A stretch of 64,000 bases of DNA from an uncultured Acidobacteriota bacterium (GTDB taxonomy: Bacteria > Acidobacteriota > UBA6911 > RPQK01 > JAPXNP01), in contig CAVZRV010000031.1 of NCBI GenBank assembly GCA_963777605.1, forward strand, positions 160,001-224,000, written 5' to 3'. Numbering within the stretch: the stretch's first letter is position 1; each line of letters opens with the position of its first letter. A program made the position numbers and the translations under genes. Shown in pieces: positions 1 to 21,368 of the stretch. The notes beneath the pieces were generated by a model. It had not been told where the DNA came from, did no database searches, and worked only from the letters and a program-made list of their open reading frames with translations.

Positions 1-217
1 ACGGACACGACATCAGAGCCCTTGTTGAGCCATCGCAGTTGGCGCCTGACGGTCGCCCGCTCGTGGTCCTTTGTTACACCAACCCCTGCAGAGGTGTTCC
101 ACTTCTTGAGAAGCGACGACAAAGCTCCACTATGTGCGCTTTGCCTCCTCGGAAGAACGAGAGGAATATCGCGATTTTTATGAGTCAGTGATGAAGAACC
201 TGGAGACGGGAGAATAG
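1..217 (+). CDS. Transketolase N-terminal (ThDP-binding) subunit, 3' part only (runs off window; one frameshift)
   Basis: Manual translation gives DGHDIRALV...RPLVVLCYT, then in a shifted frame KLHYVRF...ETGE*, with TAG at 215-217. DGHD is typical of the C-terminal part of transketolase N-subunits; next gene starts 3 nt later. Confidence 0.7.
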
Positions 218-220
218 GCG

Positions 221-1237
221 ATGGAGATCGTTTCAAGAGTTCACGCCAAGAATCTCGTGGGCTGGGCGAAGGACAAGCCGGAAGTCGTCGTTCTCGGCCG
301 ATTTGACGGGTTCCACCGAGATCGATACGTTTAAGGATACCTATCCGGACCGATTCTTCTCGATGGGAGTCGCCGAGCAGAACATGGTCAGTCTGGCAGG
401 CGGGCTCGCCCGCGAAGGGTACATCCCGTCCGTACACACCTTCGCCGTGTTCATCTACCGGCAGGCCTTGAACCAGATTGTGAGTTCGGTTGCCTATTTC
501 GAATCTCCCCGTTAAATTTTTCCAAAACTCCCTTGGCCCGGAATCACGACCCCAGGCGGTGCGACTCATCAGGCAATCGAGGATGTTGCCGTCATGCGCA
601 CAATACCAAATATGACGGGTGTCCTGAGTACTTGGGGATGCAACGGAAGTAGAAACCGTGCTCGACGCGGTCTTCGCTCTACCCGGCCCGGTATACGTGC
701 GAATGCTCCGCGGTGAGATGCCCAGGTTGTTCCCTGTCGAGGAACCACTCGTGGTGGAACCATCCGCGTATCTTGCATCAGGGCCAGGACGTAACCCTCA
801 TTACGGCCGGGATCTGCACCGAAGAGGCATTGCGCGCGATCGCCATTCTAGGTGGGAAGGGCGTCTCCATCCACCACTTGCACGTATCGACGCATAAGCC
901 ATTCACGAATCCGGTGATCCTCGAGGCGGTTTCCAAACCGCGCTACGGTGTCATAACATTGGAAAACCATTCAATCTGGGGTGGACTCGGAACGGAGGTG
1001 GCGGAGGTGATGGCGACGAACGGAGTCGGAAAACGCCTCGTTCGCGTTGGGCTCCGCGATTCGTTCGCCCACGGTGGAAGCCGGCCCTACCTGATGAGGA
1101 AATTGAAAATCGATGCCATGGCCCTTGTGCTCCATATCGAAGAGATGATTGGCATGAGGCTCGGAATTCGAGAGGAGGATCTCGAGCGGGTGCGAATCGA
1201 ACCGTTCGACAACATCGCGCGAGTGGAGGCATTGTAG
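221..1237 (+). CDS. Transketolase C-terminal subunit (pyrimidine-binding + C-terminal domain), frameshifted
   Basis: ATG at 221; ORF pieces 303-515 (DRFFSMGVAEQNMVSLAGGLAREG), 658-897 (PGPVYVRMLRG) and 713-1237 (GQDVTLITAG, VITLENHSIWGGLG, RVGLRDSF); HQAIED in between. Confidence 0.85.
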
Positions 1238-1245
1238 AGCACGCT

Positions 1246-2395
1246 ATGAACGAAAGGTTGTTTGGCAGCGAGCGTTTCACGGTTTCCTATCTCCTCACGG
1301 GCGACAACCGGCTGGCGACCAAGAGAAAGGCCAAGGACATTTGCTACGAGAAAACGGTTGAGTTTCCGAGCGACCTCATTCCAGATGGATTCATAAAAGA
1401 CCACGTGGTCGGCCGCGTGGAAGACTTTCAGCCAGCCGGTCAATCCAGATTCCGGGCCGTCATCAGCTATGCAGTTGAGACGGCGGCGGGCGACCTCGTT
1501 CAACTGCTAAATGTTATTTTCGGAAACATCAGTCTCGGGAAGGCAGGCATCAAAGTGGAACGGTTCAACTTGCCCGGCAGCCTGTTGGCCCGCTTTCGTG
1601 GGCCGCGCTACGGAGTACGTGGCCTGCGCAACCATCTCGGCATCGCCGACAGGCCCCGGGTCTGTGCTGTGCTGAAACCGATGGGCCTCTCGCCCATCGA
1701 GCTCGCGGAGCAAGCCAGTCAGTTTGCGCGGGGTGGGATCGACATTGTCAAGGATGATCACGGTCTCACCACCAAGTGTTCGCCCCATTTGAGGAGCGCG
1801 TTGCGCGCTGCGTCGAGGCTGTGGCGAAGGTCAATCAAGAACATGGAAGTCAATGCCGTCCTCGACGCACCGAATGTGACGGGGCCGAGCGATCAGGTTA
1901 CGCTTCTCGCGCGTCGGGCCAAGGCCGCCGGCGCGGGCGCCCTGCTGATTTGTCCTGGGACTTGTGGGCATCGATGCTATGCGAGTCCTTGCGCAAGATG
2001 ACTCGCTGGCTTTGCCCATAATGGCCCACCCTTCTTTCTGGGGGAAGCTTCGTCACAACACCTGAGAACGGATTGAGCCACTTCGCCCTATACGGCCAGA
2101 TCATGCGCCTCGCGGGCGCGGACATGACGATCTTCCAAACTACGGCGGCCGCTTTTCGTTCGAGATTCTAAGAGGAATGCGCCGAGATTGTTGAGGGATG
2201 TAGGTGCGGGATGGGTGACGTTGCGACCATCTTTCCGGCACCGGCTGCGGGGGTACTACGACCGATCGGGCTGCCGATCTGGTGCGAGTCTATGAGAAGG
2301 ACTTTGTCTTGATTGTCGGTCGAGGCGTGCAGCGGCGGAGTTTCGACCTCGTTGAGAATAGTCGCCATTTCCTCAGCATCCTGAATGGACTGTGA
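1246..2395 (+). CDS. RuBisCO-like protein (form IV RLP), resembling R. rubrum MTRu-1P isomerase; frameshifted
   Basis: EKTVEFP, LLNVIFGN, FRGPRYG, LKPMGL, GGIDIVKDDHG (KDDH instead of KDDE); downstream frames give FAPFEERV, AHP, RLAGAD..IF.NYGGRFS, FPAPAAG; TGA at 2393-2395. Confidence 0.85.
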
Positions 2396-2439
2396 GATCC
2401 TCTATTTCGACCATTTCGGCAAACCCTGCGACTTCGGGT

Positions 2440-2593: not shown

Positions 2594-2615
2594 GAAATGC
2601 ATAGGCTCTCCCGGA

Positions 2616-3829
2616 TCAAGGAGGATCTTGCTCGCTGACGTTCCCGGCATTCTTCTCCACGAATGACTGCCCGTGAGGCATAGGTGAAATCTGGAAAAGA
2701 TGAGCCAGCGTTTGCGCCACATCATAGAAGCCTTTGCGAATTCCAAGATCCTTTGCCGGTAGGCCGGGGCCATAGAGCAGGATGGGAACGTATTCTCTGG
2801 TGTGATCGCAACCTTCGAATGTTGGATCATTTCCATGATCGGCGGTGATAATCAGGATGTCCGATCCTCTCATGGCGGCGATCAGCTGTCCAAAAAATAG
2901 ATCGGCTTCTTCCAACGCCCGGGCGTAGCCGACTGGGTTCCTCCGGTGACCGAACAACATGTCAAAGTCGATGAGGTTAGCGAACACAAGTCCGTGGTCG
3001 AGCTGGTTCGCCAGTTCAAGTATCGCTGATTGGGCTTCACAGTTGTTGAGGACGTGTATCGACTGAGAAATGCCTCGACGCAGAAAATATCATCAATCTT
3101 GCCCACACTCACCACATGGATTCCATGTTCCTTCAGACGATCAAGAATCGTAGTCCTCGGCGGAGGAAACGGAAAGTCCCGTCGATTCTCCGTGCGTCTG
3201 AAGTTCCCCGGCCTCCCCAGGAAAGGCCGAGCAATGATACGCCCGACACGATACTCATCACAGAGTCTCCTCGCAGTGGAACACGCCTGATAAAGTTCCT
3301 CCAGAGGTATTACTCCCTCATGCGCAGCAATCTGGAAGACAGAATCGCCACTTGTGTAAACAATCCAGGAGCCTTCGCGCATTTGACGTTCGCCCAACTC
3401 CTCAATGATCGCCGTCCCACTCGCTGCACAGTTACCGATGATTCGCCGACCTGTCTCCGCCTCAAACATTGCAGTGAGTTGTTCCGGAAATGATGGAGAC
3501 TCCTTTCGAAAGACCGTGAAACCCGGTCTGAGGAGTAGACCTGCTATTTCCCAATGCCCAGTAACGGTGTTTTTTCCTCGGGAGACCTCTTCCATCGCGC
3601 CGAAAGAGGCAAGAGGCTGAACGGATGCGGAAACTCCCTGAACCGCTAGGCACTCGGGGACGGCGGCGGCGGCCCTGCCAAGCCCAAGGGTCTCGAGCGT
3701 TGGTACGCGGAGCGAACCTGCCGCCTGGGCCGTATGTGCGAGGGTATTGGCTCCTTCGTCCCCATATTCCTCAGCGTCCGCAGCAGCACCAATCCCAACA
3801 GAATCGAGTACGACCAGAAACACCCTCAC
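2616..3829 (-). CDS. deoB: Phosphopentomutase (one frameshift near 3030-3080)
   Basis: VVLDSVGIG, GKNTVTGHWEIAG, YTSGDSVFQIAAHE, RIIARPF; C-terminal ORF 2616-2987 has NLIDFDMLFGHRRN, ITADHGNDPT, DHTREYVP. Confidence 0.93.
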
Positions 3830-4085
3830 GATAGGTCACTCACACGCGTAAAGTGAACTCGGGACTCACGAATCTCTCCGAGAGAATAGTCATGAAAAAG
3901 GACAGCCGATGCGCTATTTGGCAACCGGCACCCTCTTACATCGCAGCGAGTACCAGTCTAGCATTAATAGTCTGCGGTAAGAACGTCTTTTCAACAAGAT
4001 CTTGAAAAACCGAACGATGCCCTATGCTTGAGTATAGCGTGTTGGATCACTCGCGGTCAGACATGAAGCGTCTTCGTGCAATGAG

Positions 4086-5711
4086 GTGCACCAAGATTTG
4101 GCTCGCTTGATCATTAGGCTCACTACGATGTACTTTTTGCCTCCTCCTCTCTCTTGGTATTTTCTATCTGAAGTCCACTTCAGACACGCGATGAAAGACC
4201 GCCAGGAAGAGGCAGAGGACTACTACCGAAAATGGTTGACTCGAGATGTCGTCTACATCATATCTGACGAAGAGAAAGAGGTTTTCGCTAAGCTGACAAC
4301 GGCGGAGGAGCAGGAACGCTTCATTGAGCAGTTCTGGTTTCGGCGCAACTCGGATCCCACGACCCGTGTGAATGAATACAAAGAAGAGCACTACCGTAGA
4401 ATCGCCTACGTGAACGAGTACTTTCAGAGTGGGATCCCGGGCTGGGAAACCGACCGGGGCCGGATTTACATTATCCATGGACCCCCGGATGAAGTCGAGT
4501 CGCATCCATCAGGTGGCAGCTACAAAAGACCCTATCATGAAGGTGGGGGATACACTTCGACATTTCCTTTTGAGATATGGGAGTATCGACACATCGACGG
4601 AATTGGAGACGATATTGAACTCGAGTTTGTGGATAGTAGTCAGTCTGGGGAGTTTCGGCTGGCCCTTCTTCCCGAAGAGAAAGATGCGCTGCTCAATGTC
4701 CCTGGTGCGGGTCTCACTCTTGCTGAAAGCCTCGGCTGGGCTAAGAAGTCGGACCGCCCCTATTTCTCGCCTGGAACGAATTACCCTTACCAACACCCCA
4801 GAATCCAGGACGATCCGTTTATGCGATTCGAAAGATTATTCAGGAGTTCGGGCTCCCGCGAAGATTCGATACAAGGATCTGCAGCAGCTTGTCAAGACGA
4901 ACGTTGCCTTCTCCAACCTTCCCTTCAACGTGCAGATTGATTATCTGCAGTTTGATACAGAGAAAGCTCTGGTGCCTGTCACCCTGGAATTTCAGAACCA
5001 CACGCTTACATTTGCTGCAGCCGGAAACAATGTAACGGCGAAAGCCGCCGTGTACGGCGTGGTCACCTCCATCGGCAATAGAGTTGTCTACGAATTCGAT
5101 GATGATTTTCAACTTTCGTACCCTTCAAGCATTTGGCCCAGGTCTTGAAGGGACGCTCCCTCTACCAGCGAATGATTCCTTTGGACACCGGAGGGCGCTA
5201 TAAGCTCACATTGATTGTCAAGGATCTTAATACCGGGAATATTGGAGTCTATGAAGGTGCGATCGTTACGCCTCGATACCTTGCTGGCAAGCTTGCTCTA
5301 AGCTCCCTTATTTCGGCTGCGTCCTGCGTCGAGATCGATCAGGCTTCCGCTGAGCCGGGAATGTTCGTCTTAGGAGACTTCAGGGTTTACCCGAATACAG
5401 AGAGGCTCTTCTCCCAGAATCAGACAATAGGTCTCTATTTTCAGATCTACAATGCGACCTTGGATCAAGCCTCTCAAATCCCCTCACTCTCTGTTTCTTA
5501 TCGAATTTCTCATGGGTCTGAGACAAGGTTCGAGATCTTGGACGACTCGGGAGAGTTCCTACGAATCTATCGGGGAGGTCGAGTAGCTGTGGTCAGATCC
5601 TTTGATGCATCGAGCCTTGGTTCTGGCGCCTATCGCATCGACATCAGCGTGCAGGACAAGATCTCAGGCGAGGAGAAGAGCATAGAACAGGCATTTCGGA
5701 TTGGCTCTTAG
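4086..5711 (+). CDS. GWxTD domain-containing protein (two frameshifts)
   Basis: KWLTRDVVYIISDEE, FIEQFWFRR, EEHYRRIAY, GIPGWETDRGRIYIIHGPPDE; continues in 4429-5148 and 5133-5711 (LALSSLI, FVLGDFRVYPN, GAYRIDISVQDKISG). Confidence 0.88.
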
Positions 5712-5881
5712 CTCATATGTCTCGCTATTTCCCGTTGGGAACTCGCCATCGTCTCTGCTTCCTCCGCACGGACTCCGCGATATGAGGTGGTCCCACTTGG
5801 GACTTCATCTACATTTTTGCGCATTCGGCCACCGTCTAGGGCGAGGTCCCTTGGAGAACTCCGACCACTCGGCCCATGGGT

Positions 5882-6904
5882 CTATCCCCATGGCGGCTGG
5901 CTCGTCAGCTGAATCAGCGCTTCCAGCGTCGTTTCCTTCTGGCGTTCCGAAACGGTCAGGTGCCGATGTTTACCTGTTTCGTTTTCTTGAAAGCTGGTGC
6001 GTCCTTGCTGGTCGACACTGACTATTCCCGGTCTGGAGAATCCGAAGTAGCCGCGATTTGGACGGACGGCGAACTGCGTAACCGGCATAATCCCACGTTG
6101 GTCGGTCGTAGGGCATCGGGAGATTTGTAGGCCCGATAGGCGTCTGCGATGGGATGGTTCTTCACATAGCCGAAGTCTTCTTCGATGCTGACCGCTGGAT
6201 AGGGGATCGCATGACCGATCTCAAAGCCGCTGAATACGATCTCTGTGGGCCACGTCGAGAACACCTTTTGCGGCCGAATCACGGTCGACGAAGACATTGA
6301 ATTCTGGAACCTCTTCCAAGAAATTGCCGGCCATTGCGGACAGCATGCGGACCTTCAAGCGGACCGAGATACCGGCCCCGACAGCGGGCTGATCGCGTCG
6401 GGGCTCGTTTCCAGAAGAGCCGCGAGATTCGTGCTGAAACCCACCTGGACGATGACGACCGAGCCGTCCTCCGATCCGGCCAGAAGGCGCCGCAAAAGTG
6501 TCACGGCATCTTCCGCATCTTGGTTCTCGACGAGGTCGTGTGGATAGATATACTCACCGCCCGCATCCTTCGCCAATCCTGCCTGCAGGAGTACAGAGAA
6601 CTCTTGGCGGCCCTTGCCATGGTGAACGACACCAATCGGGATGCCGCCACGTCCGTAAAAGGTATTGATGGCGTCGACAAAGGGAGCACCCATCGGGTGC
6701 TCTTTTGTCAGGAGGTCACTCCCAACAAGTGACATTCTCCGCGACTTTCAAGGGCGTGAATCACCCCAAGGGCCAAGGCATCGTCGATATCATTTCCCAT
6801 GTCGGTGTCAAAGATAAGTTGGTACTGAGCCTCCGTACAGATGAGGGCTCGTGAAGGCCATTATCGAGAATGTCTGTCGCAGCCCCACTTCGGAATCGGG
6901 TCAT
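5882..6904 (-). CDS. Nucleoside hydrolase family protein (frameshifted)
   Basis: Minus translation near 6830-6720 gives LIFDTDMGNDIDDALALGVIHALESRGEC; also VQVGFSTNLAALL, WPTEIVFSGFEIG, HPIADAY; ATG with GAAGGTG RBS at 6904. Confidence 0.8.
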
Positions 6905-7215: not shown

Positions 7216-8221
7216 CTAGGTTTGTCGCGAGACGATGATGAGACCAAGGCCCAATATGAAGAGGGCGAACATCAATACGATCAACCGGTTCGTGCCGCGG
7301 GGAGCCTCCCTGAATTCCTTCCACACGAACACGCCCCAGAGCGCGGCAACCATGGTTGCCCCCTGGCCCAATCCGTACGAGATGGCAAATCCCGCCTGCC
7401 CGGAGGCGATGATGCTGAACATCATGCCGATTCCCCAGATGATGCCACCTAAGACCCCGACGGCGTGGAGAGGCGCCGATCCTCCGAAGTAGTCGGCGAA
7501 AGAAACCAGGACGACCTACGAAAGGTCTCTTCATAATGATCGTATTGAAGAGCAGATTACTGCCGAAAAGTCCCAGCGAGAACATAAAGACGGCGGAGTA
7601 CGGGGTCCAGCTTTCCTGGCTCAAGGTTATTGAAGTTCAGCGACATCGAAGCTGCTACAAAACGATAGAAGAAACCAGCCAGGATCCCGCACAAAACCGC
7701 CAACACAAGCCCCTTGGAGCCACTATCCGCAGTCTCTTTGGGCAGTCTCCGGTAGGCGATTGCATCTAAAACGATGGCCGCCGTCACCAAGGCAACCCCA
7801 AAAAACAGAACTAACGGAACCCCCAGAGGAGTGGCGAGATCAGGTGATGAGGACCCCAAGAACCAGAGCCAAACCGATTCCTACCGGGAAAGCCACCGCC
7901 ATGCCGGCAATCGCAATCGAAGCCACCAGCAGGATATTGGCCGCATTGAAAATAACACCGCCGAGAGCAGCGGAGACGAGATTCAAAATATGCCCTGCGC
8001 CAAATCAACAAGAAACCCCCGCCCTCCAGCGCCGACACTTCCGAGTGTCAAAGCGAACAACGTCAAGACGCAAGGAGGACGCCGATTGCATAATCCCAGT
8101 AAAAGAGCTCGAAACGCCAGTCTCTGGCTGCCAGCTTCTGCGTATTCGCCCACGATCCCCAGCAGAGCATGGTGATCAAGCAGAACACCACAGCCCATAA
8201 GTAACTGTCCAACACAAACAT
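7216..8221 (-). CDS. Ureide-permease/GRP-like DMT sugar or nucleobase permease (frameshifted)
   Basis: MFVLDSYLWAVVFCLITMLCWGSWANTQKL..WRFELFYWDYAIG; C-terminus AGFAISYGLGQGATMVAALWGVFVWKEF; GAGGGAG RBS. Confidence 0.8.
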
Positions 8222-8378
8222 GCGCGCTCCCTCGTCTCACTGCCATCGACCGAGCGGTGCAAGCCATCCGTCCGCTGTCGCTCGACCCCTACCGTGTTCT
8301 TTTGCCGTCTCCCGCCCGCATGTCTCTTGCGGGCGGGAGTCTGAGGAGGTGTACGCAGCCCTGTGTGTCCTCGAGAGT

Positions 8379-11300
8379 CTAGAAGTTGAGTTTAAGACCA
8401 AATTGGATATATCTCGGATTTCTCGCTGACGTAATCCGGCCGAAGTTCGGATCATTCGCCGTCATGCCCAAGCCCACAAACTGAGCATGGTTGAACGCGT
8501 TGAAGAACTCCGCGCGGAACTGTAACGACATCGCTTCCTTTAGGCTGAAATACCTCTGAAGGCTGAAATCCCAATTATTGACCCCAGGTCCGATGATCGT
8601 TCCCCTCCCACCATCGCCCAGTGTCTCCGCGGGTGGAATAACGAAGTCCGTAACATCGAAGAAGGGGAATAGCGTGGGCTGCTTTCGGATATCATCTTTC
8701 AGAGCGTCACTGTTACCAGGTCCAATCCGCGTAGCAGGCTGCATGCGGCGTCCGCCAATGCGAGCCAAGTCACCTCCGATATTCCGGCGTTTTCGCCTGG
8801 CCACCCATAAACGTGGCGATTCCACTGAATTGCCAACCATTTATAATACATTCACCGGTCCAGACATGTCCCCGCCTAGCTTCATCCCGGCCGAACAGAA
8901 TCGTAAATGAAGCTCACTAACGCCGATGCCTCGAATCAAGGAAGCGGGACCTCGCAACTCCTTGATCGTCCCGGTAATATCTCGCTAAACGTATTCATCC
9001 GGGCTTCCATGTCAAGGGCCTTTCCAATGTGTAGGATGTGAATAACGCGAAACCGTTCCGAAGCGGTCTGTCAACCCAACGTTAAGACCATTGTAGTTAG
9101 ACCACCCATTGTTCATCGAAGTCAGAATGTCTCCAAAACCCGAAAACGGCCGCCTGTCCTCCATAGGGACTCCCGGCTCGGGTGGTGGCATATTCATCAT
9201 GCAAAGGCGATTCAACTTCACCCCCGTTGAACCAACATAACCCGCCTCAATGAAAACCGGCCACATTCCTCTGAACGTTTACATTGTACTGGGAAACATA
9301 CGGAGTTCGATTCCAAGGTGACGTTGTGTTGGGAGATGTGCTCCGGGATAAATTCAGGTGAAGGATACATCCCGTTCACCTGATATGTTGGTGTCGGTCG
9401 AGTATTGTTCGAGGACGCAATCTGAGTGTTGGGTGGGTTAGAAACCCCCCAAAACTGAGTTTCATTGAGACCAATCAGGTCGTAAAAAATTCCATATCCT
9501 GCTCGGATGACTGTCTTCGAAGAGGGACTATCGCAAGACCATTCGTGGTGCGAAGTTGTTGCGATCAGGTTCGAATAGGGCGCCCTGCACATCAACGTAT
9601 TTCAGCGTATTGAGGTCGAGATAGTTGAGTTTATTGTTCTCTTCCGACATCGGCTCAGATACTTGAATGTAAACCAAAATAGGCATTCAAATTCGAGGTT
9701 AGCTTCCAGTTATCTTGGCCATATAGTGAGAAATCTGTGTTCCGGAAGCTTCCGGAGCTGTCGCCGATAGACTGATTGGTGAAATCAACAGTCCCAACAT
9801 GAACTCGGGCATGGAATCTCCCGTATAGTACCCCACGAAGCTAAGAGAGGGAGCGCTAGGAAAGTCGTTGTCTATGGCGAAGCGACGAGCCTAGATCCAT
9901 GCCGAACTTAAGGCGAGGATCTCCCTTGACATAGGAGACGTTTTCGTTGACCTGGAACAGGTCGTCGACTGTCTCCTGAGTCTGGGCAGCCTTGCCCGAT
10001 TCCCGAATAGGTGAGCGGCTTGAAACCGGGAAGTGCAAAGTGGCGGCTTTGGTGGTAGGGTTCTGCACACCGAACTTGTCCAAGATCTTCCCCGTATGCT
10101 GCCTCCGGAACACTGTAGTCCAGATTGCGATTGTAGCCGAGCCGGAACTCATTAACGAAACTGGGACCAAAGAAGTGAATTACTGGAGACTGAAAGACTG
10201 GTCTCCAAGAGGCCTATTCAAACCGTATCCCTCGAAAAGCGAAGGTGAGGTCAGGGGTTCTCCACCCAAGAATACTTAGCGAACATCCGGTCCGACTCTG
10301 TAAGGTCGATATCGACCTTGGCATGGATCTCGTCACGGTCGCTAGGCTGGAGTCCCTCGCGGCCATAATTTAGACTCGGATCAAACTCGCGATTCGGCGC
10401 CGGGTAGAACGGCGCGACATTTCCCATTACAGCGTCAAATCGGTCGACGGGTATCCGATTATCCGGGAAGGGTGCTCCGGTCGTAGGATCAATAATCTCA
10501 TGGTCGAACTGGCCCGCCAGGTTTTCGGTGAGGGAACTCGCCCAGGTAGGTGTTTGCCAGTCGCGACCGATAGCCTTCATAGCTTCCGAAGAAGAAGACC
10601 TTGTCTCGAATCACCGGGCCCCCGACGGTCCCACCAAACTGATTTTGCTTATATCGTGGTTTCTCCGAACCGTCAAAGAAGTTCCTCGCGTTCAGCTTGT
10701 CATTCCGGAGGAACTCGAAGAGGGAACCGTGGAACTCGTTGGTCCCTGATTTGATGATCGTGTTCACAACCGTTGTTCCCCAACCCTGGTCGGCCGTGAA
10801 AACATTCCGTTGAACATTGAACTCCTGAATTGTGTCAATTGAGGGTCGAAATCCCGAACCACCCCAACGAGGGGAACGCGTCTCGATACCGTCCAGGAGA
10901 TAGCTGGTGTCGGTCTCCCGCAGGCCAGCGACCACCACCGACATGTCGGATCGGCTTGTCCAAGAACTCACCGGTGAGATGGCAGAGTGAATTTGCATAA
11001 CACCGGGAGACAGCTGGGCAAGCTGGATGAATTCCGTCCGTTGAGCGGCAACTCGACGATTTCTTTCGCTGTGAGAACACTGGTCATGGCAACGTCGTCC
11101 GACTGCACAACGTCGGCAGCCGCACTTACCTCAATCGCCGTGCTGACCTCGCCTATACTGAGTGGCACATTGACGGTACGCCTCGTTCCTACCAGAAGCG
11201 CAATATCGGATGCCACGAACGTCTTAAAACCTTGAAGTACGGCCGTCAGCTCATACGTTCCCGGGTCCATTCGCGGGAAAATATAGCGGCCCAAGTCATC

Positions 11301-11490
11301 ACTTAATGCCGTGCGGGCCGCATTCGTCTCCACATTCCGCAACGTCAGTTCGACGCCCGGAATAAAACTCCCCTGTTGGTAGAACCGCCCCCAAGATGTC
11401 TCCGGTGGTCGACTGAGCAGTGGCGAACCGGGGCAGCAAACAAAGAACGGTGAGAGCAACAAGCAAAAACAGAAACTGCGGCCTTCTCAT
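8379..11490 (-). CDS. TonB-dependent receptor, Acidobacteria type with carboxypeptidase-regulatory-like N-domain (heavily frameshifted)
   Basis: Signal peptide MRRPQFLFLL; GRYIFPRMDPGTYEL, ELPLNGRN, IKSGTNEFHGSLFEFLRNDKLNARNFF, QNQFGGTVGGP; C-terminus LQFRAEFFNAFNH...PRYIQFGLKLNF. Confidence 0.9.
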
Positions 11491-11749
11491 GAGAAATCCC
11501 CTCCCCTCGAACGAGACTGGCGCGAATTGTCTTATTTCACACTTATATTAGTTCGGGGTAACTGGCCAGTCAAGAACTTTTTGTGGTAACAGTACAGAAA
11601 AGTTTCCGTGGTGGTGGTGGTGCTATTCTTCCGATGGTATACTCGGCGGGATCATTGGATCCAGCTTCCGTCAATGCAGCCGGATTTTCCAGAACCGGGA
11701 GACAACGGCTGTTGGGACGGTGGCGGAACCGCACTAAGAGGGGGTTGAG

Positions 11750-12864
11750 ATGGAGACTGGAAAGGATCGGATTCTCAAAGCCTTCACTCATGTTAACCAT
11801 CGGTGGCCCCGACCAACATCGAGGGAATCTACAACCTCGAGGCGTTCTTGAAGCGATTCCAGGTTCGAAGTAAGGAGTCTGTCCGACTCCGCCTGGATGT
11901 GGACGTTTTCAGCGCTCGCCCGGTCTATTTTGGTCCAAACGCACGCATGCGTTTGGATGCCTTTGGTGCGCCTGTTGATGAAGTATATGGAACTGATGGA
12001 GTCGGCTACGGAGTGGGTAGAGACTACCCACTCCGTGAAGCTACGAGTCCCGCGGACGTGGAGAGATTTCCCTGGCCTAGTCCTGATCACTTCGACTACG
12101 AGGTTGCTTCCCGCTTACTGGCCCGCCTACCTGCCGACAAGGCCAAGCGGATTGACGGGAAGTACGGAGTCGCTAGACGGGGCAGGATCACGAGGCGGCC
12201 GCGGGAGGGGGGCCCTGGTTGCCCCTGATTTGCAATCTTTTCAATCTCTTTGGCATGGAAGATACGCTGATTAACATGGCTGTCCAGCCCAAGCTCATTG
12301 AAACGGCAATCCGCAGGACTCGAGGAGTTTACGGTTGAGTTCTTTGGAAGGCTCTGCGAGGCCACCCGAGGGCAGGCGGAAATCGCTTACTATGGGGACG
12401 ATTTCGCGACCCAGAGGGGACTGATGATATCCCCGGAGCACTGGCGGCGATTCCTGAAGCCTACTTACCGGAAGGTCTTCGAACTGCTGAAGAGCTACGG
12501 ACTGAAAGTGTGGTTCCACAGCTGTGGGCAATTCCGCCCCGTGATGAGCGACCTGATTGACATCGGCATGGACGTGTGGGAGACCGTGCAGACTCACCTC
12601 CCCGGAAATGAACCCGAGATCCTGAAACGAGAATACGGGGAGCATATCACTTTCTATGGAGGTATCAGCACGCAACGAACCTTGCCGTTTGGCACGGTTG
12701 ACGACGTGCGCAGGGAAGTCCGTGAACGCATTCGAGTGCTGGGCCGGGGCGGCGGCTACATAGTGGGGCCGGATCACGGGATCATGCCGGACGTGCCGGT
12801 CGAAAACGTGCTGGCGATGTTCGACGAAGCGAGGAAGTTCAGTTTTGACTCTCCTGCAGAGTAG
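11750..12864 (+). CDS. Uroporphyrinogen decarboxylase-like / MtaA-CmuA family protein (frameshifted)
   Basis: ATG at 11750 (METGKDRILKAF); YPLREA...FPWPSPD; YGDDFATQRGLMISPE, WFHSCG, FYGGISTQRTLPFGT, GGGYIVGPDH. Confidence 0.85.
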
Positions 12865-12965: not shown

Positions 12966-13985
12966 ATGATCAAAGAGTCTTCGTATCGTGGAACCACTCG
13001 CTGGGCCCTGTTCAGCCTACTGAGCTTGTCTCTCGCCGGTTCTGTTCCTGTTTCGGCGCAGGGGAAGATTCCCGTCATCCTCTCGACCGACGTGGGTAAC
13101 GAGATCGACGATCAGTGGGCGATTCTCTACACACTGTTCAGCGATGAGTTCGAGGTTCTTGGAGTCATCTCCGCCCACGCGCCATCTATTGCCCCCCCTG
13201 CGGGTCACACAGCCTATCGGATCCTCCGCGATATTGTCGAAGAGCGACTGGCTATGGATGTTCATCCCCCACTATTGGAAGGGGCGAGTTTCCCACTCGA
13301 GAGCAAGACCGCCCCTCAGCCCAGCGAAGGCGCAAGCTTCATCGTTCAGGCATCTCAGGGGTTCTCTGAGAACACTCGCCTTCGAGTATTGACAATTGGA
13401 GCGGGAACCGACGTCGCCTCGGCTCTCCTGATGGATCCGTCGCTTTCGGGCCGTATCCAAGTCTTGCTGATGGGCTTCGACGAGTGGCCCAAAGGAGGGG
13501 ACGGATTCAACATATTGAATGATGTCAAGGCAGCCCAGGTCATTTTTGAGTCGAATGTACCCATCGTTGTGGGTTGTGCGACAGTCTGCACCGAGAATCT
13601 CGGGCTGAAGTGGAACCAAGCGAAGGAGATGGTGAGTGAGCGCGGTCCCGTCGGGCGGTGGCTCTGGGACGAGTACCAAGCCTTCTATTATAGATACGTC
13701 AAACCCATGAGGATGGACGACTTTTCGAAGCCGTGGATCATTTGGGACACCATCGTTGTGGCTCATCTTCTGGGCTTTACGCAACACGCAACCTATGACC
13801 GGCCTGTGCTGAATGACGACGTCAGCTTCAGCCCCGGAGATCGGAAGAAGCAAATCACCTGGATCACCGATGTCGACGAGGAAGGTATGTGGGCGGACTT
13901 CCTCGAGAAACTGGACCGCCACCAGAGGACCTATTCGGTCGGCCCTTATCGTTTTCGGACTCGATTGACTTTTCTAATGCCTTAG
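12966..13985 (+). CDS. Secreted nucleoside hydrolase family protein
   Basis: Intact 339-aa ORF; signal peptide ending VSA; ILSTDVGNEIDDQWA, IGAGTDVASAL, FNILND, IIWD. Confidence 0.85.
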   Translation: MIKESSYRGTTRWALFSLLSLSLAGSVPVSAQGKIPVILSTDVGNEIDDQWAILYTLFSDEFEVLGVISAHAPSIAPPAGHTAYRILRDIVEERLAMDVHPPLLEGASFPLESKTAPQPSEGASFIVQASQGFSENTRLRVLTIGAGTDVASALLMDPSLSGRIQVLLMGFDEWPKGGDGFNILNDVKAAQVIFESNVPIVVGCATVCTENLGLKWNQAKEMVSERGPVGRWLWDEYQAFYYRYVKPMRMDDFSKPWIIWDTIVVAHLLGFTQHATYDRPVLNDDVSFSPGDRKKQITWITDVDEEGMWADFLEKLDRHQRTYSVGPYRFRTRLTFLMP

Positions 13986-14086: not shown

Positions 14087-15087
14087 ATGATGCGAATGGG
14101 CGCCTTCCCACTTATCCTTGTCTCGGCAATGCTGGGAATGCTGAGCGGTCCACCGTCGGCTTCAGGCCAGCCAGCGGACCCTGAAACGAAGATTCCTGTC
14201 TTCCTCTCGACTGATGTTGGGAATGAGATGGACGACCAGTGGGCCGTTGTCTACACGCTTCTGAGCCCAGAATTCGATGTGCTCGGGGTCGCCTCAGCTT
14301 ATGCCCCTCGATCCCGGCGCCTGCTGGCTTTGTGGGATATCAGCTTTTGCTGGATATCGTGGAAAACCGCCTGGATCTGAAAACGCACCCCCCTCTCGTA
14401 GAGGGCGCCAGCCAACCTCTGCCCGACTCGACAACTCCCAGGAGAAGCCAGGCTGCTCTTTCGATCATCGAGTCATCGCGGCCATTCTCACCGCGAAACC
14501 GGTTGAATGTCATGGCCATCGGTGCGCTGACGGACGTCGCTTCCGCAATCCTGCTCGATCCGTCCATTGTGGAGCGAATTCGGGTGATCGATATGGGGTT
14601 TAACAACTGGCCGGCAGGAGGGGACCTTTACAACATCATAAACGACATTCCCTCGGCTCAAGTCGTGTTCCATTCTAACGTGCCGGTCGTTGTCGGTTGC
14701 GCCGATGTCTGTCGTGAGAGTCTTTCAGTTGACTTTGCGGAGGCCAAGACACTGATCAGCAGCAGGGGGCCGATTGGGGACTGGCTCTGGGAAGAGTTTA
14801 CCGCTCACTATTTTCGCTTCGTCAAGCCGCTCCGGGTCGACGACTTCTCCAACAAGAAGGTGATCTGGGACGTCATCGTGATCGCCTATCTGCTGAATAT
14901 GACAGATCACGTAACCCATCCTCGCCCCGCGGTCGAGGACGATGCTTCGTTTGGGCCGCTCAGACCGGACAGTGAGGTGACCTGGATTACCGATCTCGAC
15001 GAGAATCGGATGTGGGCCGACTTCCTCGCGAAGTTGGATCGTTTTCAAAAAACTCACAGAATTGGGTCCGCGGATCAAAGGGATTAG
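14087..15087 (+). CDS. Secreted nucleoside hydrolase family protein, paralogue of the upstream gene (one frameshift ~14305)
   Basis: Signal peptide; LSTDVGNEMDDQWA, IGALTDVASAI, YNIIND, VIWD; colinear with 12966-13985. Confidence 0.85.
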
Positions 15088-15147
15088 TCCGACAGAGCCG
15101 AGGTTGAGCCCAGTGATCCGGAGCCCCGAGGCCATACGGGAAAGCCG

Positions 15148-15557
15148 GTGCGTCCCCGACGTCAACTACACTTCCCTATCGCGCAGCAGGGCCTTTCGTC
15201 GAGTTTCGTCAATGTGACGGTTTGTGCCCTGCGCTTTCTCTACCGGGTGACGTTGAACTGCGACTGGAACATCAAGCGACCCGCCCCACGGACTGGTGGT
15301 TTCCGGGGCGCGGAAACGATCGGCCTGTTTCCTCGAACACGGTCCAGGGCGTGTGTCGCAAAGCCGCCCTGGCCTCGGGGCTAAGAAAGCGGGTCACCCC
15401 TCATTTCTTGCGCCATAGCTTCGCCACCCATCTCTTGGAGGGCGGAGCCGACCTTAGAAAGATCCAGCTTCTGCTCGGCCACCAGAGCCTTGCCTCAACC
15501 GTCCGCTATACCCACATGGCGCTGCAGCAAATTCCGCAGACTGCTCAGCGACAATAA
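15148..15557 (+). pseudogene. Tyrosine recombinase/integrase fragment of the type paired with IS91-family transposases
   Basis: [12 protein letters not shown] joined directly to WWFPG...[41 protein letters not shown]; middle of the protein missing. Confidence 0.8.
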
Positions 15558-15905: not shown

Positions 15906-15952
15906 CGGGCCAGACCAAGACACTTCAAGGGGATTCGAAGGAACCTCGCCGG

Positions 15953-17075
15953 TCACCTCCGGCCTGCCATCTCGGGGTACAGTTCCAGGATGCCTTCCTC
16001 AGATGCTCGGCAGATCCCGCGCTCCGTGATCAGCCCCGTCACCAGACGGGCCGGGGTCACGTCGAAGGCATAGTTGGCTGCGGGACTGGAGGCCGGGGTC
16101 ACCAGCACAGATTCGACCTTGTCTCGGACAAGCCCGTCCACCCATTTCACTTCCGACTCACTCCGCTCTTCGATCGGGATTTCTTTCACTCCATCGCGCA
16201 AGACCCAGTCGAAAGACGAGGAGGGCAGGGCGACGTAGAAGGGGATGTTGTTGTCTGCGAGCGGCCAGCGCCTTCAGGTAGGTGCCTATCTTGTTGGCTA
16301 CGTCGCCCGTATACAGGGTTCGATCCGTTCCCGTAATGACCATGTCCACCCGTCCATGCTGCATCAGGTGGCCGCCGGCATTGTCGACGATCACGGTGTG
16401 AGGGACGCCGTGTTGGCCCAGTTCCCAGGCCGTCAGGCCCGCTCCCTGATTCCGGGGTCGCGTCTCGTCGACCCAAACGTGAACCCGGATTCCGGCGTCA
16501 TGCGCCTCGTAGATCGGGGCAGTGGCGGTTCCATAGTCAACAAAGGCGAGCCATCCCGCGTTGCAGTGAGTGAGGATGTTGACGCGCTCGCCCCCCTTCT
16601 TCGAGCGGATCTCCTCAATGATCCTGAGGCCGTGTTCTCCGATTCGCCGGCAGTACTCCGAATCCTCGTCTGCAATCCTGTCGGCTGTTTGCCGCAGAGC
16701 GTGGATCATCCCATCGATGCCCAGAACCCTGTTCAGCACTCCGACCTGCCGGTTCACGGCCCACTCCAGATTCACGGCGGTCGGCCGGCTCTCCTTGAGT
16801 CTGCGGGCACTGGAGTCCATCGCCTCCAGAAACGCATCGTCCGAACACCGTGGTGAAGTCAGCCCGCCCAGGTACATTCCGTAACCTGCGGCTGCTCCGA
16901 TCAGCCCCGCCCCCCGAACATGCATCTCAGAGATTGCGACGACGACCTCATCTACGGTTCTCAGGTCTTCAATTACAAACCGATGCGGCAGGTGACGCTG
17001 ATCGATGATTTGAACAACGCTCGGGTCGTCCTTCTTCCGCCAAATTGTTCGAAAGTGCTGCCCCTCGACCTTCAA
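15953..17075 (-). CDS. mtnA: S-methyl-5-thioribose-1-phosphate isomerase, copy 1 (one frameshift ~16255)
   Basis: IIDQRHLP, MHVRGAGLIG, SRPTAVNL, ILTHCNAGWLA, DETRPRNQGA, ANKIGTY; C-terminal ORF NYAFDVTPARLVTGLITERG. Confidence 0.92.
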
Positions 17076-17249
17076 TCGTCCGTCCCCTTCCTTGGCGCTC
17101 CCTGTCGCATTAATTTCGTCTAGTGTCGCCTTGCTGAAGTAGATTACTTAATTTCCGAGCGTGAGCCATGCTGTGCGCATGCCAGGACGTGCCCCTGAAA
17201 TCGTGCTGACCGCCGAAAAACCGTTTTCGAGAAACACGGTGAAGGCGTC

Positions 17250-17480
17250 GAGCCTCGCCTTAGCAGGACGTTCTGCGACGCTATCCGGGTCGGGAGCTGC
17301 ACGTGATCGTCGACAATGGCTCGTTTCATCGCAGCTGGGAAACCAGCGACTAGGATCGCCAAAACAAGCGTCTGAATCTTCATTACAACCCGACCCATGC
17401 CAGTTGATTGAATCAGATCGAGATCTGGTTCGGGAATCTGACCCGCAAGATCGTCCACCGTGGCATCCTCTAGTCCAGAG
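17250..17480 (+). mobile_element. IS630-family transposase remnant
   Basis: Plus-strand YPGRELHVIVDNGSFH and LHY.PTHAS*LNQIEIWF (IS630 HxTPxxxSWLNxxExWF motif with a stop in place of W). Confidence 0.75.
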
Positions 17481-17539
17481 AATAGTTGGTGGCCAAATTG
17501 ATCGATTTAGTCCCGACCTACAATCCCGAGGCCCGTCCC

Positions 17540-17850
17540 TTTATGTGGACATGATCCGGTCTCAGGTATCCCTCTTCGAGCTCGCTTTCCTCGTGCCGCG
17601 CCAACTGACGAAACGCCGGAGTCCAGTTCCCCACGCAACGTTCCCGCAGATCACTTTCCGCCTGCACTTTGGAATGAACGCCCGTGATACTTACACTCCC
17701 ACTTCGTGCGCTGTAGACTGCTGTAGTTCGTCATTGAAGTCCCTTTCGTGATGCTTTGGTCGGCTCACGAAGAGACTTCTCAAATCAGATTTCCGAAAAT
17801 GTCAAACTTCGGCTGCCTCCCCGGCAGAACCGGAGGGACTCCCGATTTGG
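17540..17850 (-). mobile_element. tnpA: IS200/IS605-family TnpA (Y1) 5' remnant with end hairpin
   Basis: ATG at 17734: MTNYSSLQRTKWECKYH..FIPKCRRK...EEGYLRPDHVHI (HUH motif), then truncated; imperfect hairpin cctccccggcagaaccggaggg at ~17816-17837. Confidence 0.8.
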
Positions 17851-17851
17851 C

Positions 17852-18742
17852 CTAGATCGACTTCAACGCAGTCGCGTTCCAGATCTTCCCCTCACCTTCA
17901 ATGGCGCGCTCTATGTCCCGAAGGGCCAAGGCGACGTAGAGTGCGTCCACAATTGTGCTTTGGGCGATCCTCGAGGCGATCGTTTCCGAGCGGGTTTCAC
18001 TGGAGACACTCAACAATGTGACGTCCGCGTACTCCGTAATCGGGGACTGCGCATTCCCGGTGATGCATATTGTTTGACCCCCATTCCTTTTTGCTTCAGC
18101 CATCGTAAGGACCGGGTCACTGGAACTACCGGATTGGGAAATACCAACCACCACATCTCCCGGCCGGATGAGAGCGGCTTGCATAAGCTGCAGGTACGAA
18201 TCGGTCTCGGCGCGGCAATTAAGCCCCAGACGAAACAAGAAATTGTACATCGACTGCACGATCAGCCCCGGAGTGCCCACTCCGACCAGCAGGATCAGAC
18301 TCGACTTTGCTCCTTCAAGCATGTCGACTGCTTTCTCAAATCCCTCCAGGTCAAGAACCTCCATCGTGTCCTTAAGGGCCTGGATATTCGCCAGAAAGAC
18401 CTTGCGGGCAACGGTAGGCGGGGTGTCGTCCGCGGCCAGATCATCGTGAATGACCTGTGTCGGAGATGCCATGTCCCGCTCAACGGCAGGCTTCGAATCG
18501 GTATACCCGTGAAAACCCACCGCTCGGCAAAATCGTAGCACGGTCGTGTCGCTGACACCGCATTCGCGGGCAACCTGCGCCATGGACAAGCGGACAATCT
18601 GCTGGCTGTTCTGAAGAACCCAGGAGGCAACGTCCGACTCCGCCCGAGCTAGACCGGGAAGGTGACTGCGAATTTGGGACAGAGCTTTCAAGCTCGAGAC
18701 CGAAGGGGCCACTCCACCCGCCAATGTTGTTTCCTCTTCCAT
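17852..18742 (-). CDS. MurR/RpiR family transcriptional regulator (HTH + SIS)
   Basis: AQVARECGVSDTTVLRFCRAVGFHGY; LVGVGTPG; VVGISQSGSS; ITGNAQSPITEYAD; likely ATG at 18742. Confidence 0.9.
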   Translation of the reverse strand: MEEETTLAGGVAPSVSSLKALSQIRSHLPGLARAESDVASWVLQNSQQIVRLSMAQVARECGVSDTTVLRFCRAVGFHGYTDSKPAVERDMASPTQVIHDDLAADDTPPTVARKVFLANIQALKDTMEVLDLEGFEKAVDMLEGAKSSLILLVGVGTPGLIVQSMYNFLFRLGLNCRAETDSYLQLMQAALIRPGDVVVGISQSGSSSDPVLTMAEAKRNGGQTICITGNAQSPITEYADVTLLSVSSETRSETIASRIAQSTIVDALYVALALRDIERAIEGEGKIWNATALKSI

Positions 18743-19011
18743 GGTTCTCACTCCGTCTTCAGGACCCGGACAATGGGACTGTCTTCCAAGGCAATCCTCA
18801 ACCCACATTCCGGCCTCTGCCACACCCCAGACCTTTTCCCCGTCCAACTTTCGGGGAACCGCCCCCCCCAAAAAAATCTCAATGGCAAGCGTCAAGGTAG
18901 CAGTATACTGCCCAGATAATCAGGTGCATGTCGTGGTACCACTTTCACCCGTTCAAACTCCGAGGGCACAGCAGCCGCTCGCTCAAGCTGGGCAGCAGCG
19001 ATCCGCCGTTG

Positions 19012-20048
19012 TCAATCGAACAGTTCCGGCAAGGACTGCGAATAGGGCGGCGTCACAATGCCTCTCTCCGTGACAATTGCGGTAACCAGTTCGTGAGGAG
19101 TGACGTCGAACGCAGGACTTTGGCTCGTGTGCCTTCCGGCGCCGTCTGGATTCCGCCGCATCGCGTCACTCCTCGGTCTTCCGCTCTTCGATCGGGATCT
19201 GTTTTCCGAAGGGGTATCCATGTCGATGGTCGGTGTCGGAGCCGCCACGTAGAAAGGGACCTTAAAGTAGTGGGCGAGGATCGCCAGGCTCAGCTTACCT
19301 ACTTTGTTCGCCACGTCCCCGTTTGCCGCTACGCGATCCGTGTCCGTGATCACCGCGTCGACTTTCCCCTGAGAAAGCACCACTCCCGCCGCACTGTCGC
19401 AGATCAGTGTGACGTCAATCCCCGCCGACTGTAGCTCCAGAGTCGTAAGTCGGGCGCCCTGCAAATAGGGACGGGTCTCATCGGCGTAGACTCTCATGTT
19501 CCACCCTCTCTCCTTCGCCAGAAACATGGGAGCGGTTGCAGTTCCGTAGGCTGTCGCAAGGCTGCCCGCGTTGCAGTGAGTCAGCAGACTCACCCCGTCG
19601 CCGATCATGGTCAGGAGGTTCTGACCGAATTCCTTGCAGATCTCCGCATCCTCCTGAAAGATCCGGTTCGCCTCCGCCTCCAAGACTCTCCTCTTTTCGC
19701 AAACCGAGAGGGATTCGAGCCGGTTCACCTTCGTAAGCATTCGATCAAGGACCCAGGAGAGATTGGCTCCGGTGGGACAAGCTCAGGCGAGAAACTCGGC
19801 ATGCCCTCTCAAGGTTCGCATGAATTTGGCATGACCGATCTCTCCCAGATCCCGGACGCCGAGGCAAAGGCCATACGCGGCTGCAATCCCGATCAGCGGC
19901 GCCCCGCGCAGTTCCATGTCCCGAATCGCCCGGAACACCTCTGCTACGGAGTTCCTGGGATTGTACTGACGTGTCCGGAAAGTCGAGTTCGTTCAAGACA
20001 TAGAGTGTCCATCCCTCCACTCGATTTGTTTCAGCCCTCCTGACACAT
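19012..20048 (-). pseudogene. mtnA: Methylthioribose-1-phosphate isomerase, copy 2 (several frameshifts, eroded motifs)
   Basis: LLTHCNAGSLATAYGTA, ADETRPYLQGARLT, DRVAANGDVANKVG, PAFDVTPHELVTAIVTERG; N-terminal part ([19 protein letters not shown]) spread over frames. Confidence 0.8.
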
Positions 20049-20049
20049 G

Positions 20050-21281
20050 CTCTCCATTTCTGAGTTCTCTCTCGAACTGGAGCACCCGGGACGGATTGAT
20101 CAGGCAATCCTCCGCCCCGCAAATGCCGTCACATCCTCGATATCCGAGAATGAGTGCCGATTCATGACCAGATCTTCACCCAATTCGAGGATCAGCGTTT
20201 GGACCCTCTACGCCTTTCAAGGTCTGCGATCCATCGACATCGACATTGTGCGCGAGACCGCATGGCGGGATCATGACGATACCTGCATAGCCGATGGTGT
20301 CCACAAACAGGTTCCCATGAGGGTCTCGCGAAAGCCAACCGCCGTGGTCATGCTGTCGCGAGCGTCCTTCTCCCAATTCACTTTGAACTTCTGGTCGATT
20401 CCGGTAAGTCTCGTTGATCGTTCCCAACAAGTACTTCGATAGTCCCGATCTCTTCGGCCGGATTGTCCTTGCCGTTCCAGGAGACATAGTTGATGAGGAG
20501 ATTACCGATCAGAAGCCCGGGATCGAACGCAATTGGCCCGAAGAAGGCAAACTCGGAATCGAAGGCCTTCGTCCGGGTCTCGTCTGCGAAGATCACCCAG
20601 AGTGCAGGTCACCGTCCCAGGAATCTCTGCAGCCGTGAGAGCTTGCATTAGAATTTCGAGGCCTCCAACCGCAAACAACTCTTCTTCCAAAACACTCTTT
20701 GAGTAGCGTCTCAAGCAGTACTCACGTTGTTGCGCGGGCAATCGTAGTAGGATCGGTAAAGATCAGGTCCTCTGTGATACAATACAGCACTGGGTTAGTC
20801 AACTCCTTTACCAGTCGCTTCTTTTCTTTTGGATCTCTATGCAGGTCGGAAGTTAGAGAGCACATTGGCCATGAACGTCGAGATTTGATCCGCAAAACGT
20901 GGATATTTCTTCATTCGGATCGTGCGGCCACGCAGCACTCCTAGGCCAGACAGATCTTCCATAACAATGAGAGCCATCTCTTCGTCGATTCGATGACCTT
21001 TGGAACAAGACCCGGAGCCAATTCGTCCTGGATTTGAAGTGCCTTCCCTTCGCGAACCGCGCGACTTAGGTCCAGGGGCCACTCCTCTCCAACACATCGG
21101 ACATAGGGCAACGCCTGTTTGACGACTAGAGATTCTCCGCTCCCCGCCCTCCGGACACGGAAGACCAAGTGATGTTTCCGTCGCCGATTTCTTCAGCGGA
21201 CCACGGAGCTCCCCCTGACGCAACGTCCAGGCGCTGCACGTAGTCAGCACAACTCTTTTCGTCGAGGGTTTGATAGCTCAT
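20050..21281 (-). pseudogene. mtnK: 5-methylthioribose kinase (several frameshifts)
   Basis: MSYQTLDE...AEEIGDGN, VVKQALPYVRCVGEEWPL, ITEDLIFTDP, GDLHSG, DSEFAFFGPIAFD, TIGYAG. Confidence 0.85.
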
Positions 21282-21368
21282 CCGGAATTCTCCATAGCGT
21301 CTCAACAACTAGGTCGGTTCGGAGCAGCAGTACATCCCTGGAGCATCCTGTGAAGCAGCACCACAGCT

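Follow-up and report, generated by a model that had tools for sequence, protein, structure and literature searches.

Methylthioribulose-1-phosphate and 5-deoxyribulose-1-phosphate have three known fates: the MtnB-D enzymes, an aldolase, or a RuBisCO-like protein (RLP) acting together with a cupin. The last of these constitutes the MTA (5'-methylthioadenosine)-isoprenoid shunt of Rhodospirillum rubrum and Rhodopseudomonas palustris, which uses MtnP, MtnA, a DeepYkr-type RLP and a cupin methylsulfurylase acting on 1-methylthio-xylulose-5-phosphate (MTXu-5P); its enzymes are described in PMC10663253. In the dihydroxyacetone phosphate (DHAP) shunt and 5-deoxyribose salvage, the enzymes are MtnK or DrdK, MtnA or DrdI, and Ald2 or DrdA. 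Clusters with MtaA-like and corrinoid-protein genes (type I MGCs) have also been proposed to serve methionine salvage, with a figure legend naming MtnK, MtnA and Ald2 among their members (PMC10418091, a preprint). Here we describe a stretch of 64,000 nucleotides (the window; C31:160001-224000, on contig CAVZRV010000031.1) from an uncultured Acidobacteriota bacterium (genome G000; assembly of 6.7 Mb in 53 contigs, 96.7% complete), in which genes for an RLP, a split transketolase-like enzyme, MtnK and two MtnA paralogues lie beside a set of nucleoside-scavenging genes.

The locus has MtnA and a short (~380 aa) RLP in common with the MTA-isoprenoid shunt, and a sulfur-salvage context is common to the shunt and to related RLP loci. 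It differs from the shunt in three respects. Neither the locus nor the genome encodes a cupin, whose place directly upstream of the RLP is taken by the split transketolase-like enzyme; entry would be through MtnK, acting on the free sugar, rather than through MtnP alone; and 1-deoxy-xylulose-5-phosphate (DXP), which the shunt forms by reductive dethiomethylation, is an unlikely product here. The kinase and isomerase steps are shared with the DHAP shunt and 5-deoxyribose salvage, as are the likely substrates, methylthioribose and 5-deoxyribose (PMC6079011 and PMC10441430). The class II aldolase of those routes is missing from this locus, and the aldolase/dehydrogenase fusion of the genome lies on another contig, C7, beside an LsrF-type thiolase.

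The RLP and the split transketolase-like enzyme form a conserved and widespread pair. From 555 confirmed matches to a 16-sequence alignment used as query, we took 80 RLP loci, each with flanks of at most 10 kb, and searched them by tblastn with the frames of our region. The transketolase C subunit was found in 61/80 loci, at 60–71% identity to the window subunit, and the N subunit in 57/80. Where found, the subunits always lie directly upstream of the RLP gene on the same strand, in phyla that include Chloroflexota, Bacillota, Planctomycetota, Spirochaetota, Acidobacteriota and Nitrospirota, as well as in one Asgard metagenome-assembled genome (MAG). This bears out an earlier note on this DNA, made from its letters alone, which had treated the RLP and the split transketolase as a unit; mtnK and mtnA are often joined to it (MtnA in 18/80 loci, MtnK in 13/80). 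A transketolase-like partner, the candidate for a fourth route, is present in about three quarters of the sampled RLP loci. A full-text literature search, with subscription journals outside its coverage, returned no paper joining an RLP, a transketolase and methylthio-sugar salvage. The Promethearchaeota MAG (L051, 4733-9866) carries the array mtnK-mtnA-tktN-tktC-RLP, with proteins 44–70% identical to those of the window region.

The pair is mutually exclusive with the shunt cupin. Among the 80 loci, 61 had only the transketolase-like pair, 9 only the cupin, 10 neither (in 2 of which the upstream DNA is too short to judge) and none had both (Fisher p = 4e-7, a value that ignores the kinship of the loci). 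In a tree of 76 RLPs, which comes from a quick search because the careful one is unfinished, cupin-linked proteins are interleaved with transketolase-linked ones, even within Syntrophomonadaceae; the partner label changes 6 times, and well-supported branches require at least 3 of these changes. Of the 35 longer RLP forms (560–780 aa) found when 8000 candidates were scored, 19 are fusions of an RLP with Cupin_2 (P0133, P0135-P0146, P0148-P0152, P0154) and 0/35 contain transketolase domains. One long RLP without a cupin comes from a marine eukaryote transcriptome set.

When every frame up to 8 kb from an RLP gene was clustered and representatives were scanned, further neighbours emerged: sulfate-binding proteins, a small cupin, aldolases of the class II and DeoC/LsrF types, and sugar ABC transporters. 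A CysA-type sulfate-transporter ATPase cluster occurs in 19/80 loci, and tblastn found O-acetylhomoserine sulfhydrylase in 7/80 and cysteine synthase in 3/80. DeoC/LsrF-type genes are present in 6/80 loci, all six of which carry the transketolase-like pair.

The window RLP (1246..2395, +; ~383 codons, with at least two frameshifts in the window copy) belongs to a large family, with more than 3,000 relatives of ~380 aa and a best non-self match of 65% identity. Among the 120 matches listed, all homologues contain PF00016 and most have 370–390 aa, the short form of the RuBisCO large-subunit fold. Among solved structures the R. palustris RLP 3qfw comes first (E 2e-51), followed by 4nas (5e-42), with MtnW-type enolases at 6e-40 or weaker; we take 3qfw to belong to the clade of MTA-isoprenoid shunt RLPs (DeepYkr type). 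On these grounds the protein is a member of the methylthioribulose-1-phosphate 1,3-isomerase-type (DeepYkr) family, whose established function it is predicted to follow.

The partner of the RLP is encoded in two parts. The 3' end of the N-terminal subunit, which binds thiamine pyrophosphate (TPP), occupies 1..237 (+) and was recognised by Transketolase_N on a second copy of the region carried by contig C16; the gene starts ~700–900 nt upstream of the window and the C31 copy goes out of frame near position 120. The C-terminal subunit, with pyrimidine-binding and C domains by Pfam, follows at 221..1234 (+), with at least three frameshifts in the window copy. Of the proteins with solved structures, the split-chain transketolase 6yak matches best (E 2e-32) and has the same two-subunit architecture. 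An alignment brought together 54 N and 58 C subunits linked to RLPs and the 643-aa transketolase of this genome. As in 6yak, the N subunit retains the TPP/Mg-binding GDG...N motif and DGH, and the C subunit retains the cofactor-activating Glu (AEQNM) and THQ. Unlike in 6yak, the first conserved His is replaced by Tyr in at least 90% of the 54 RLP-linked N subunits, with the DGH His kept; the second His position is not conserved in the RLP-linked family, and an insert of ~35 residues is present. In transketolase, this His pair holds the donor C1 hydroxyl. A thiamine enzyme without the need to hold this hydroxyl would fit a donor that carries a methylthio group or a hydrogen at C1.

The steps ahead of the RLP are represented by genes on the minus strand at the far end of the locus. 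The methylthioribose kinase MtnK (20184..21285, −; at least two frameshifts in each copy) scored 312 bits with TIGR01767 (cut-off 275) for a 275-aa piece read on C16, and a further 113 bits for the next piece. Linked to it is MtnA paralogue 2 (19015..20058, −; one in-frame TGA in the window), at 421 bits on C16 against a TIGR00512 cut-off of 279. MtnA-family paralogue 1 (15971..17147, −; one frameshift per copy) reached 307 bits on the same model and is linked to an intact RpiR/MurR-family regulator (17855..18919, −; HTH_6 and SIS, by Pfam and NCBIfam). RpiR occurs in 3/80 RLP loci, all three with an MtnA1-type paralogue. In two relatives without RLP or MtnK, G004 (L110:10563-11744) and G029 (L111:9301-10788), an MtnA1-type paralogue 65–70% identical to ours has sulfatase, formylglycine-generating-enzyme-like and GFO/IDH/MocA oxidoreductase genes as neighbours. 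This sulfatase-type setting in relatives that lack RLP and MtnK hints that the MtnA1-type paralogue has a different substrate.

The window contains no mtnB-D, aldolase or cupin, as had been noted from the sequence, and for the cupin and acireductone dioxygenase (ARD) this extends to the whole genome. ARD had 0 matches genome-wide; the RLP-linked cupin, used as a tblastn query, had no match in the genome at E ≤ 1e-5 and none was found in the window by Pfam; the highest-scoring MtnB candidate, at 93 against 137, was a generic class II aldolase, and MtnC was not searched for. No class II aldolase was found in the window or on C16, and three Aldolase_II genes lie elsewhere, one of them the bifunctional aldolase/dehydrogenase. 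The genome also encodes MtnP, a third MtnA beside tsaD, AraD, and a generic class II aldolase whose neighbour is an acylating aldehyde dehydrogenase. An operon at C7:89-93.4 kb (L115:7256-11395), beside ruvAB and purF, comprises the LsrF-type thiolase (483 bits against 297), an Rpe-like epimerase and the bifunctional aldolase/short-chain dehydrogenase (812 against 686). The genome search thus bore out the absence of the ARD, MtnB and cupin routes and at the same time turned up a candidate alternative.

The salvage genes are set next to and within a second group of genes. Centrally placed is an outer-membrane receptor (8382..11567, −; ~9 pieces in the window), previously read as a TonB receptor. 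Its CarboxypepD_reg and OMP_b-brl_4 domains were found, while no plug family was reported in its pieces, nor in an intact 1086-aa homologue at E ≤ 1e-5. Around it lie a fragmented GWxTD-domain protein (4038..5712, +; by Pfam), which has a 550-aa homologue following the receptor in the relative G024, and a fragmented DMT/GRP-type sugar permease of the ureide permease/sugar transport family (7219..8229, −; by Pfam). Three nucleoside hydrolases, two of them secreted, had been proposed. Two IU_nuc_hydro proteins with clear signal peptides are indeed present, a divergent intact one (12966..13985, +; 78 bits against 34.2 for PF01156) and a paralogue with one frameshift (14087..15087, +; 51 bits); the third, a weak and fragmented homologue (5885..6747, −), stays below the cut-off at 23–24 bits. 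The phosphopentomutase gene deoB (2619..3835, −; one frameshift) scored 327 against 256 with NF003766 on its N-terminal piece. Upstream of the window, as read on C16, the cluster continues with a TPR protein, fourth and fifth hydrolase homologues and a ribokinase.

In G024 the receptor, GWxTD protein, three hydrolases, ribokinase and permease form one array in a genome with no RLP or MtnK, which argues that the receptor/hydrolase module serves general nucleoside or ribose scavenging. The permease and ribokinase recur in two further relatives (G001 and G013), and permease homologues in relatives are 65–70% identical. By contrast, RLP and MtnK were each found in 1/137 genomes of the class, G000 only, with RLP in 7/401 genomes of the phylum sample; the salvage genes are therefore an acquired island beside an older nucleoside-scavenging locus. 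Homologues of the URO-D-like protein in class relatives reach at most 41% identity. Between parts of the acquired module lie a tyrosine recombinase fragment (15117..15554, +; the Phage_integrase catalytic end by Pfam, 87% identical to DNA of contig C12) and a dispersed repeat (17580..17856) identified by a DNA search of the genome.

Taken together, these results lead us to read the region as a composite, with a probability of roughly 55%: an older scavenging module, to which a methylthioribose/5-deoxyribose salvage route has been added in which a transketolase-like enzyme replaces the cupin, and whose interrupted frames are assembly noise. The older module would comprise the outer-membrane receptor, the GWxTD protein, the signal-peptide hydrolase homologues and the GRP-type permease, with the ribokinase and further hydrolases upstream. 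The module acquired by horizontal transfer would comprise mtnK-mtnA2 and tktNC-RLP, probably the URO-D-like gene and perhaps rpiR-mtnA1. Its substrates would be 5-methylthioribose and probably also 5-deoxyribose. Following established family functions, MtnK is predicted to phosphorylate the free sugar at C1, MtnA to isomerise it to the ribulose-1-phosphate form, and the DeepYkr-type RLP to convert this to 1-methylthio-xylulose-5-phosphate (or 1-deoxy-xylulose-5-phosphate). Because the transketolase displaces the cupin gene and has an altered active site, we infer that it takes the next step in place of the cupin methylsulfurylase, probably by C2–C3 cleavage to glyceraldehyde-3-phosphate and a two-carbon thiamine-bound fragment from which methanethiol could leave. 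The periplasmic hydrolases could plausibly feed free methylthioribose to MtnK, given their adjacency in this one genome.

Several observations weigh against this reading. MtnK, both MtnA proteins and deoB exceed NCBIfam cut-offs. The RLP and the two transketolase subunits fall short of every equivalog cut-off (for the subunits, 137 and 166 bits where the transketolase model asks for 488), and the URO-D-like protein does not reach one either. Either mtnK or mtnA lies within 10 kb of the RLP in just 13–18 of the 80 loci, and the RLP tree is provisional. The two signal-peptide hydrolases are far from solved nucleoside hydrolases (best E 3e-6), and their N-terminal Asp motif is a longer variant that ends in DD and lacks the first Asp; the canonical calcium-binding motif of the family is an N-terminal DxDxxxDD. 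The C7 aldolase/dehydrogenase beside the LsrF-type thiolase is another possible sink for methylthioribulose-1-phosphate, and with MtnP and the third MtnA it makes up a candidate alternative route. Finally, the receptor, permease, hydrolases, deoB and GWxTD protein were found beside the RLP in 0/80 loci, so that the conservation expected of the whole neighbourhood holds for the RLP/transketolase core with mtnA and mtnK and fails for the scavenging genes. The earlier proposal of a pathway harvesting extracellular 5'-substituted nucleosides is not supported by this result, adjacency being the only link between the two modules.

A different account would have the RLP/transketolase pair act on another sugar phosphate, unrelated to S-adenosylmethionine (SAM) by-products, and sit here in a general pentose/nucleoside locus with mtnK and mtnA as a separate route. 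It draws on the 62/80 RLP loci with no MtnA and 67/80 with no MtnK within 10 kb, on the failure of the RLP to reach any NCBIfam cut-off when other RLP clades act on unrelated acid sugars (96 bits with the OiaX model), and on the deoB, ribokinase and ribose-type permease genes that surround the pair. Yet the extra genes linked to the pair elsewhere are mtnK and mtnA, sulfate transport, O-acetylhomoserine sulfhydrylase and cysteine synthase; orthologues of the same RLP are paired with the MTA-isoprenoid-shunt cupin in 9 loci, and the cupin is fused to 19 of the 35 longer forms; and the nearest protein of solved structure, the R. palustris RLP, belongs to the shunt clade. We regard this account as unlikely. 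Far less credible still is an archaeal pentose-bisphosphate-type route, which would make the IF-2B proteins isomerases of ribose-1,5-bisphosphate and give the RuBisCO homologue true carboxylase activity. The grouping of two IF-2B-family isomerases and a RuBisCO homologue with nucleoside hydrolases, ribokinase and deoB would suit it, but both isomerases score above the MtnA cut-off (307 and 421 against 279) and below that for ribose-1,5-bisphosphate isomerase (124 and 194 against 314). The RuBisCO homologue has only ~383 aa, scores 130 against 497 with the form III model, and shows KDDH in place of the carboxylase metal-ligand motif. The true-RuBisCO reading was dropped on these model scores and the motif.

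Within the composite reading, a bolder version can be put forward tentatively, and we think it somewhat doubtful. The RLP-linked 'transketolase' may be a new thiamine-dependent lyase that releases methanethiol in a phosphoketolase-like reaction, fed here by nucleoside harvest and with a corrinoid methyltransferase set handling the methylthio group. It would split 1-methylthio-xylulose-5-phosphate (and 1-deoxy-xylulose-5-phosphate) into glyceraldehyde-3-phosphate and an acetyl-level fragment. If so, MTA and 5'-deoxyadenosine salvage would have a third, widespread downstream branch in which the cupin has been replaced several times, and a large family labelled 'transketolase' in genome annotation would gain its proper function. 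A large share of anaerobic and soil bacteria would then recycle the sulfur and carbon of SAM by-products through undescribed chemistry.

The condition of the genes needs separate consideration. Of the 199 stop-to-stop frames starting before 22200, the 150 longest were scanned with Pfam, and the best pieces with NCBIfam. All gene families named in the earlier note were located where it had put them. It had passed over the state of the genes, most of which are interrupted, and the extension of the cluster upstream of the window. Start-codon frames do not exceed 347 aa anywhere in 1-24000, while beyond 24500 frames of 400–900 aa are common; the hydrolase at 12966 and RpiR are the only genes that read whole in the window. 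Such a field of broken genes would be expected of a decaying island, with real pseudogenes for salvage and scavenging in both strain variants and a pathway that does not function in this organism.

The second copy of the region allows this to be weighed. Contig C16 (44,647 bp) aligns over its entire length to C31:142164-186719; identity is 96.8%, and the alignment contains 992 mismatches and 374 gap openings. The RLP, deoB, MtnK, MtnA1, the receptor and both transketolase parts are interrupted on C16 as well, which is as decay would have it, but the break positions differ between the copies. The in-frame stops of the window copy, in the URO-D-like gene (12226-12228) and MtnA2, are missing from C16, where these genes are intact (375 aa and a frame of 390 aa) and the receptor is reduced to two pieces of 814 and 291 aa. 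Conversely, the 632-aa gene at window position 24500 reads through in C31 and is interrupted in C16. The ratio of gaps to mismatches is typical of read error, 325 of the 374 gaps are 1 bp long, and 192 of these 325 have no adjacent identical base. Mismatches at codon positions 1/2/3 number 41/34/42 in the pathway genes and 51/37/84 in the neighbouring diverged gene (24500-26398); since the third-position excess is absent, the differences in the pathway genes look like random error rather than polymorphism under selection.

We then built mosaics in which either copy could be chosen freely at every difference, a procedure that shows only that an open path exists. A full-span open frame was obtained in 11/13 genes: receptor 1065 aa, GWxTD 561, MtnK 423, deoB 406, RLP 403, MtnA2 375, URO-D 371, permease 344, hydrolase 341, and the transketolase C and N subunits 338 and 326; antisense controls gave 142–338 aa. 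For the RLP, both transketolase subunits, the URO-D-like protein and MtnK, the mosaic matches an intact homologue end to end in a single piece. MtnA1 stays broken even in the mosaic, as decay would predict, and the mosaic frame of the weak hydrolase (5885-6747) is not separable from the antisense control; both count against the noise explanation, as does the permissiveness of the test. The same gap load is seen in other alternate-contig pairs of the assembly: 11 of the 40 contigs shorter than 70 kb (C3, C4, C16, C18, C20, C26, C32, C33, C36, C38 and C49) are full-length alternates of stretches of large contigs, at 90.7–98.5% identity with many 1-bp gaps, which probably explains the 5.7% contamination estimate. 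A mis-binned contig was dropped as an explanation, the region lying inside a 527-kb contig with an independent copy on C16.

Since the break positions differ between C31 and C16, the mismatches are free of codon-position bias and 11 of the 13 genes open as mosaics, we consider noise the most likely cause of the breaks and decay improbable. The assembly is most likely that of a long-read metagenome with strain bubbles and a poorly polished consensus, and the genes in this strain-variable stretch are most likely intact in the organism. Apparent pseudogene fields in other long-read metagenome assemblies may likewise be consensus noise at strain bubbles.

A further feature of the region is a possible three-part corrinoid methyltransferase set. 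An AraC regulator is encoded just upstream of the transketolase–RLP genes (C31 ~147-152 kb; L011:9368-12725), together with an MtaB-like methyltransferase and a B12-binding corrinoid protein, and the URO-D family, MtaA-like methyltransferase homologue (11797..12861, +) could complete the set with the latter two. In this MtaA-like protein the HxC motif of 4ay7 is retained, and His replaces the later Cys. A URO-D-like gene occurs in 2/80 RLP loci, and in L014 a 54%-identical one stands between mtnK and mtnA. In type I MGCs, as here, URO-D/MtaA-like, MtaB-like and corrinoid-protein genes are found near mtnK and mtnA; in our genome the three are not contiguous, and their function is a prediction from sequence. 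A corrinoid link as a general feature of RLP loci was rejected because MtaB, the corrinoid protein, AraC, the upstream hydrolases and ribokinase gave just 4 weak matches in 80 loci; MtaB or corrinoid homologues stand beside the RLP in 2/80 other loci, as weak B12-binding matches.

Some smaller observations concern the isoprenoid side of the genome and the remainder of the window. No DXP synthase (DXS) above cut-off was found in G000, the best score being 134 against 466, on the 643-aa transketolase, while Dxr is present (C7:57555-57929). DXS passed the cut-off in 3/21 relatives, one of them an unpublished genome, and in 0/13 of its own family, G000 counted. PMC10663253 reports 181 complete genomes that lack Dxs alone, and the absence of Dxs in G000 fits the open question raised there of methylerythritol phosphate (MEP) pathways without Dxs. 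In 1-24000, no Rfam family reached its gathering score and no tRNA was found, and scans for promoter and terminator consensus sequences gave counts close to the expectation from shuffles. The repeat at 17580-17856 (~280 nt), directly after rpiR, matched no Rfam family or tRNA and showed no internal repeats when 17100-17950 was examined for repeat structure. It has five further copies in the genome at 83–88% identity and matches of 79–83% in other genera. Just past the start of mtnK, on the same strand, lies a gene for an HD and HD_assoc (dGTPase-like) phosphohydrolase (21615-23041, −).

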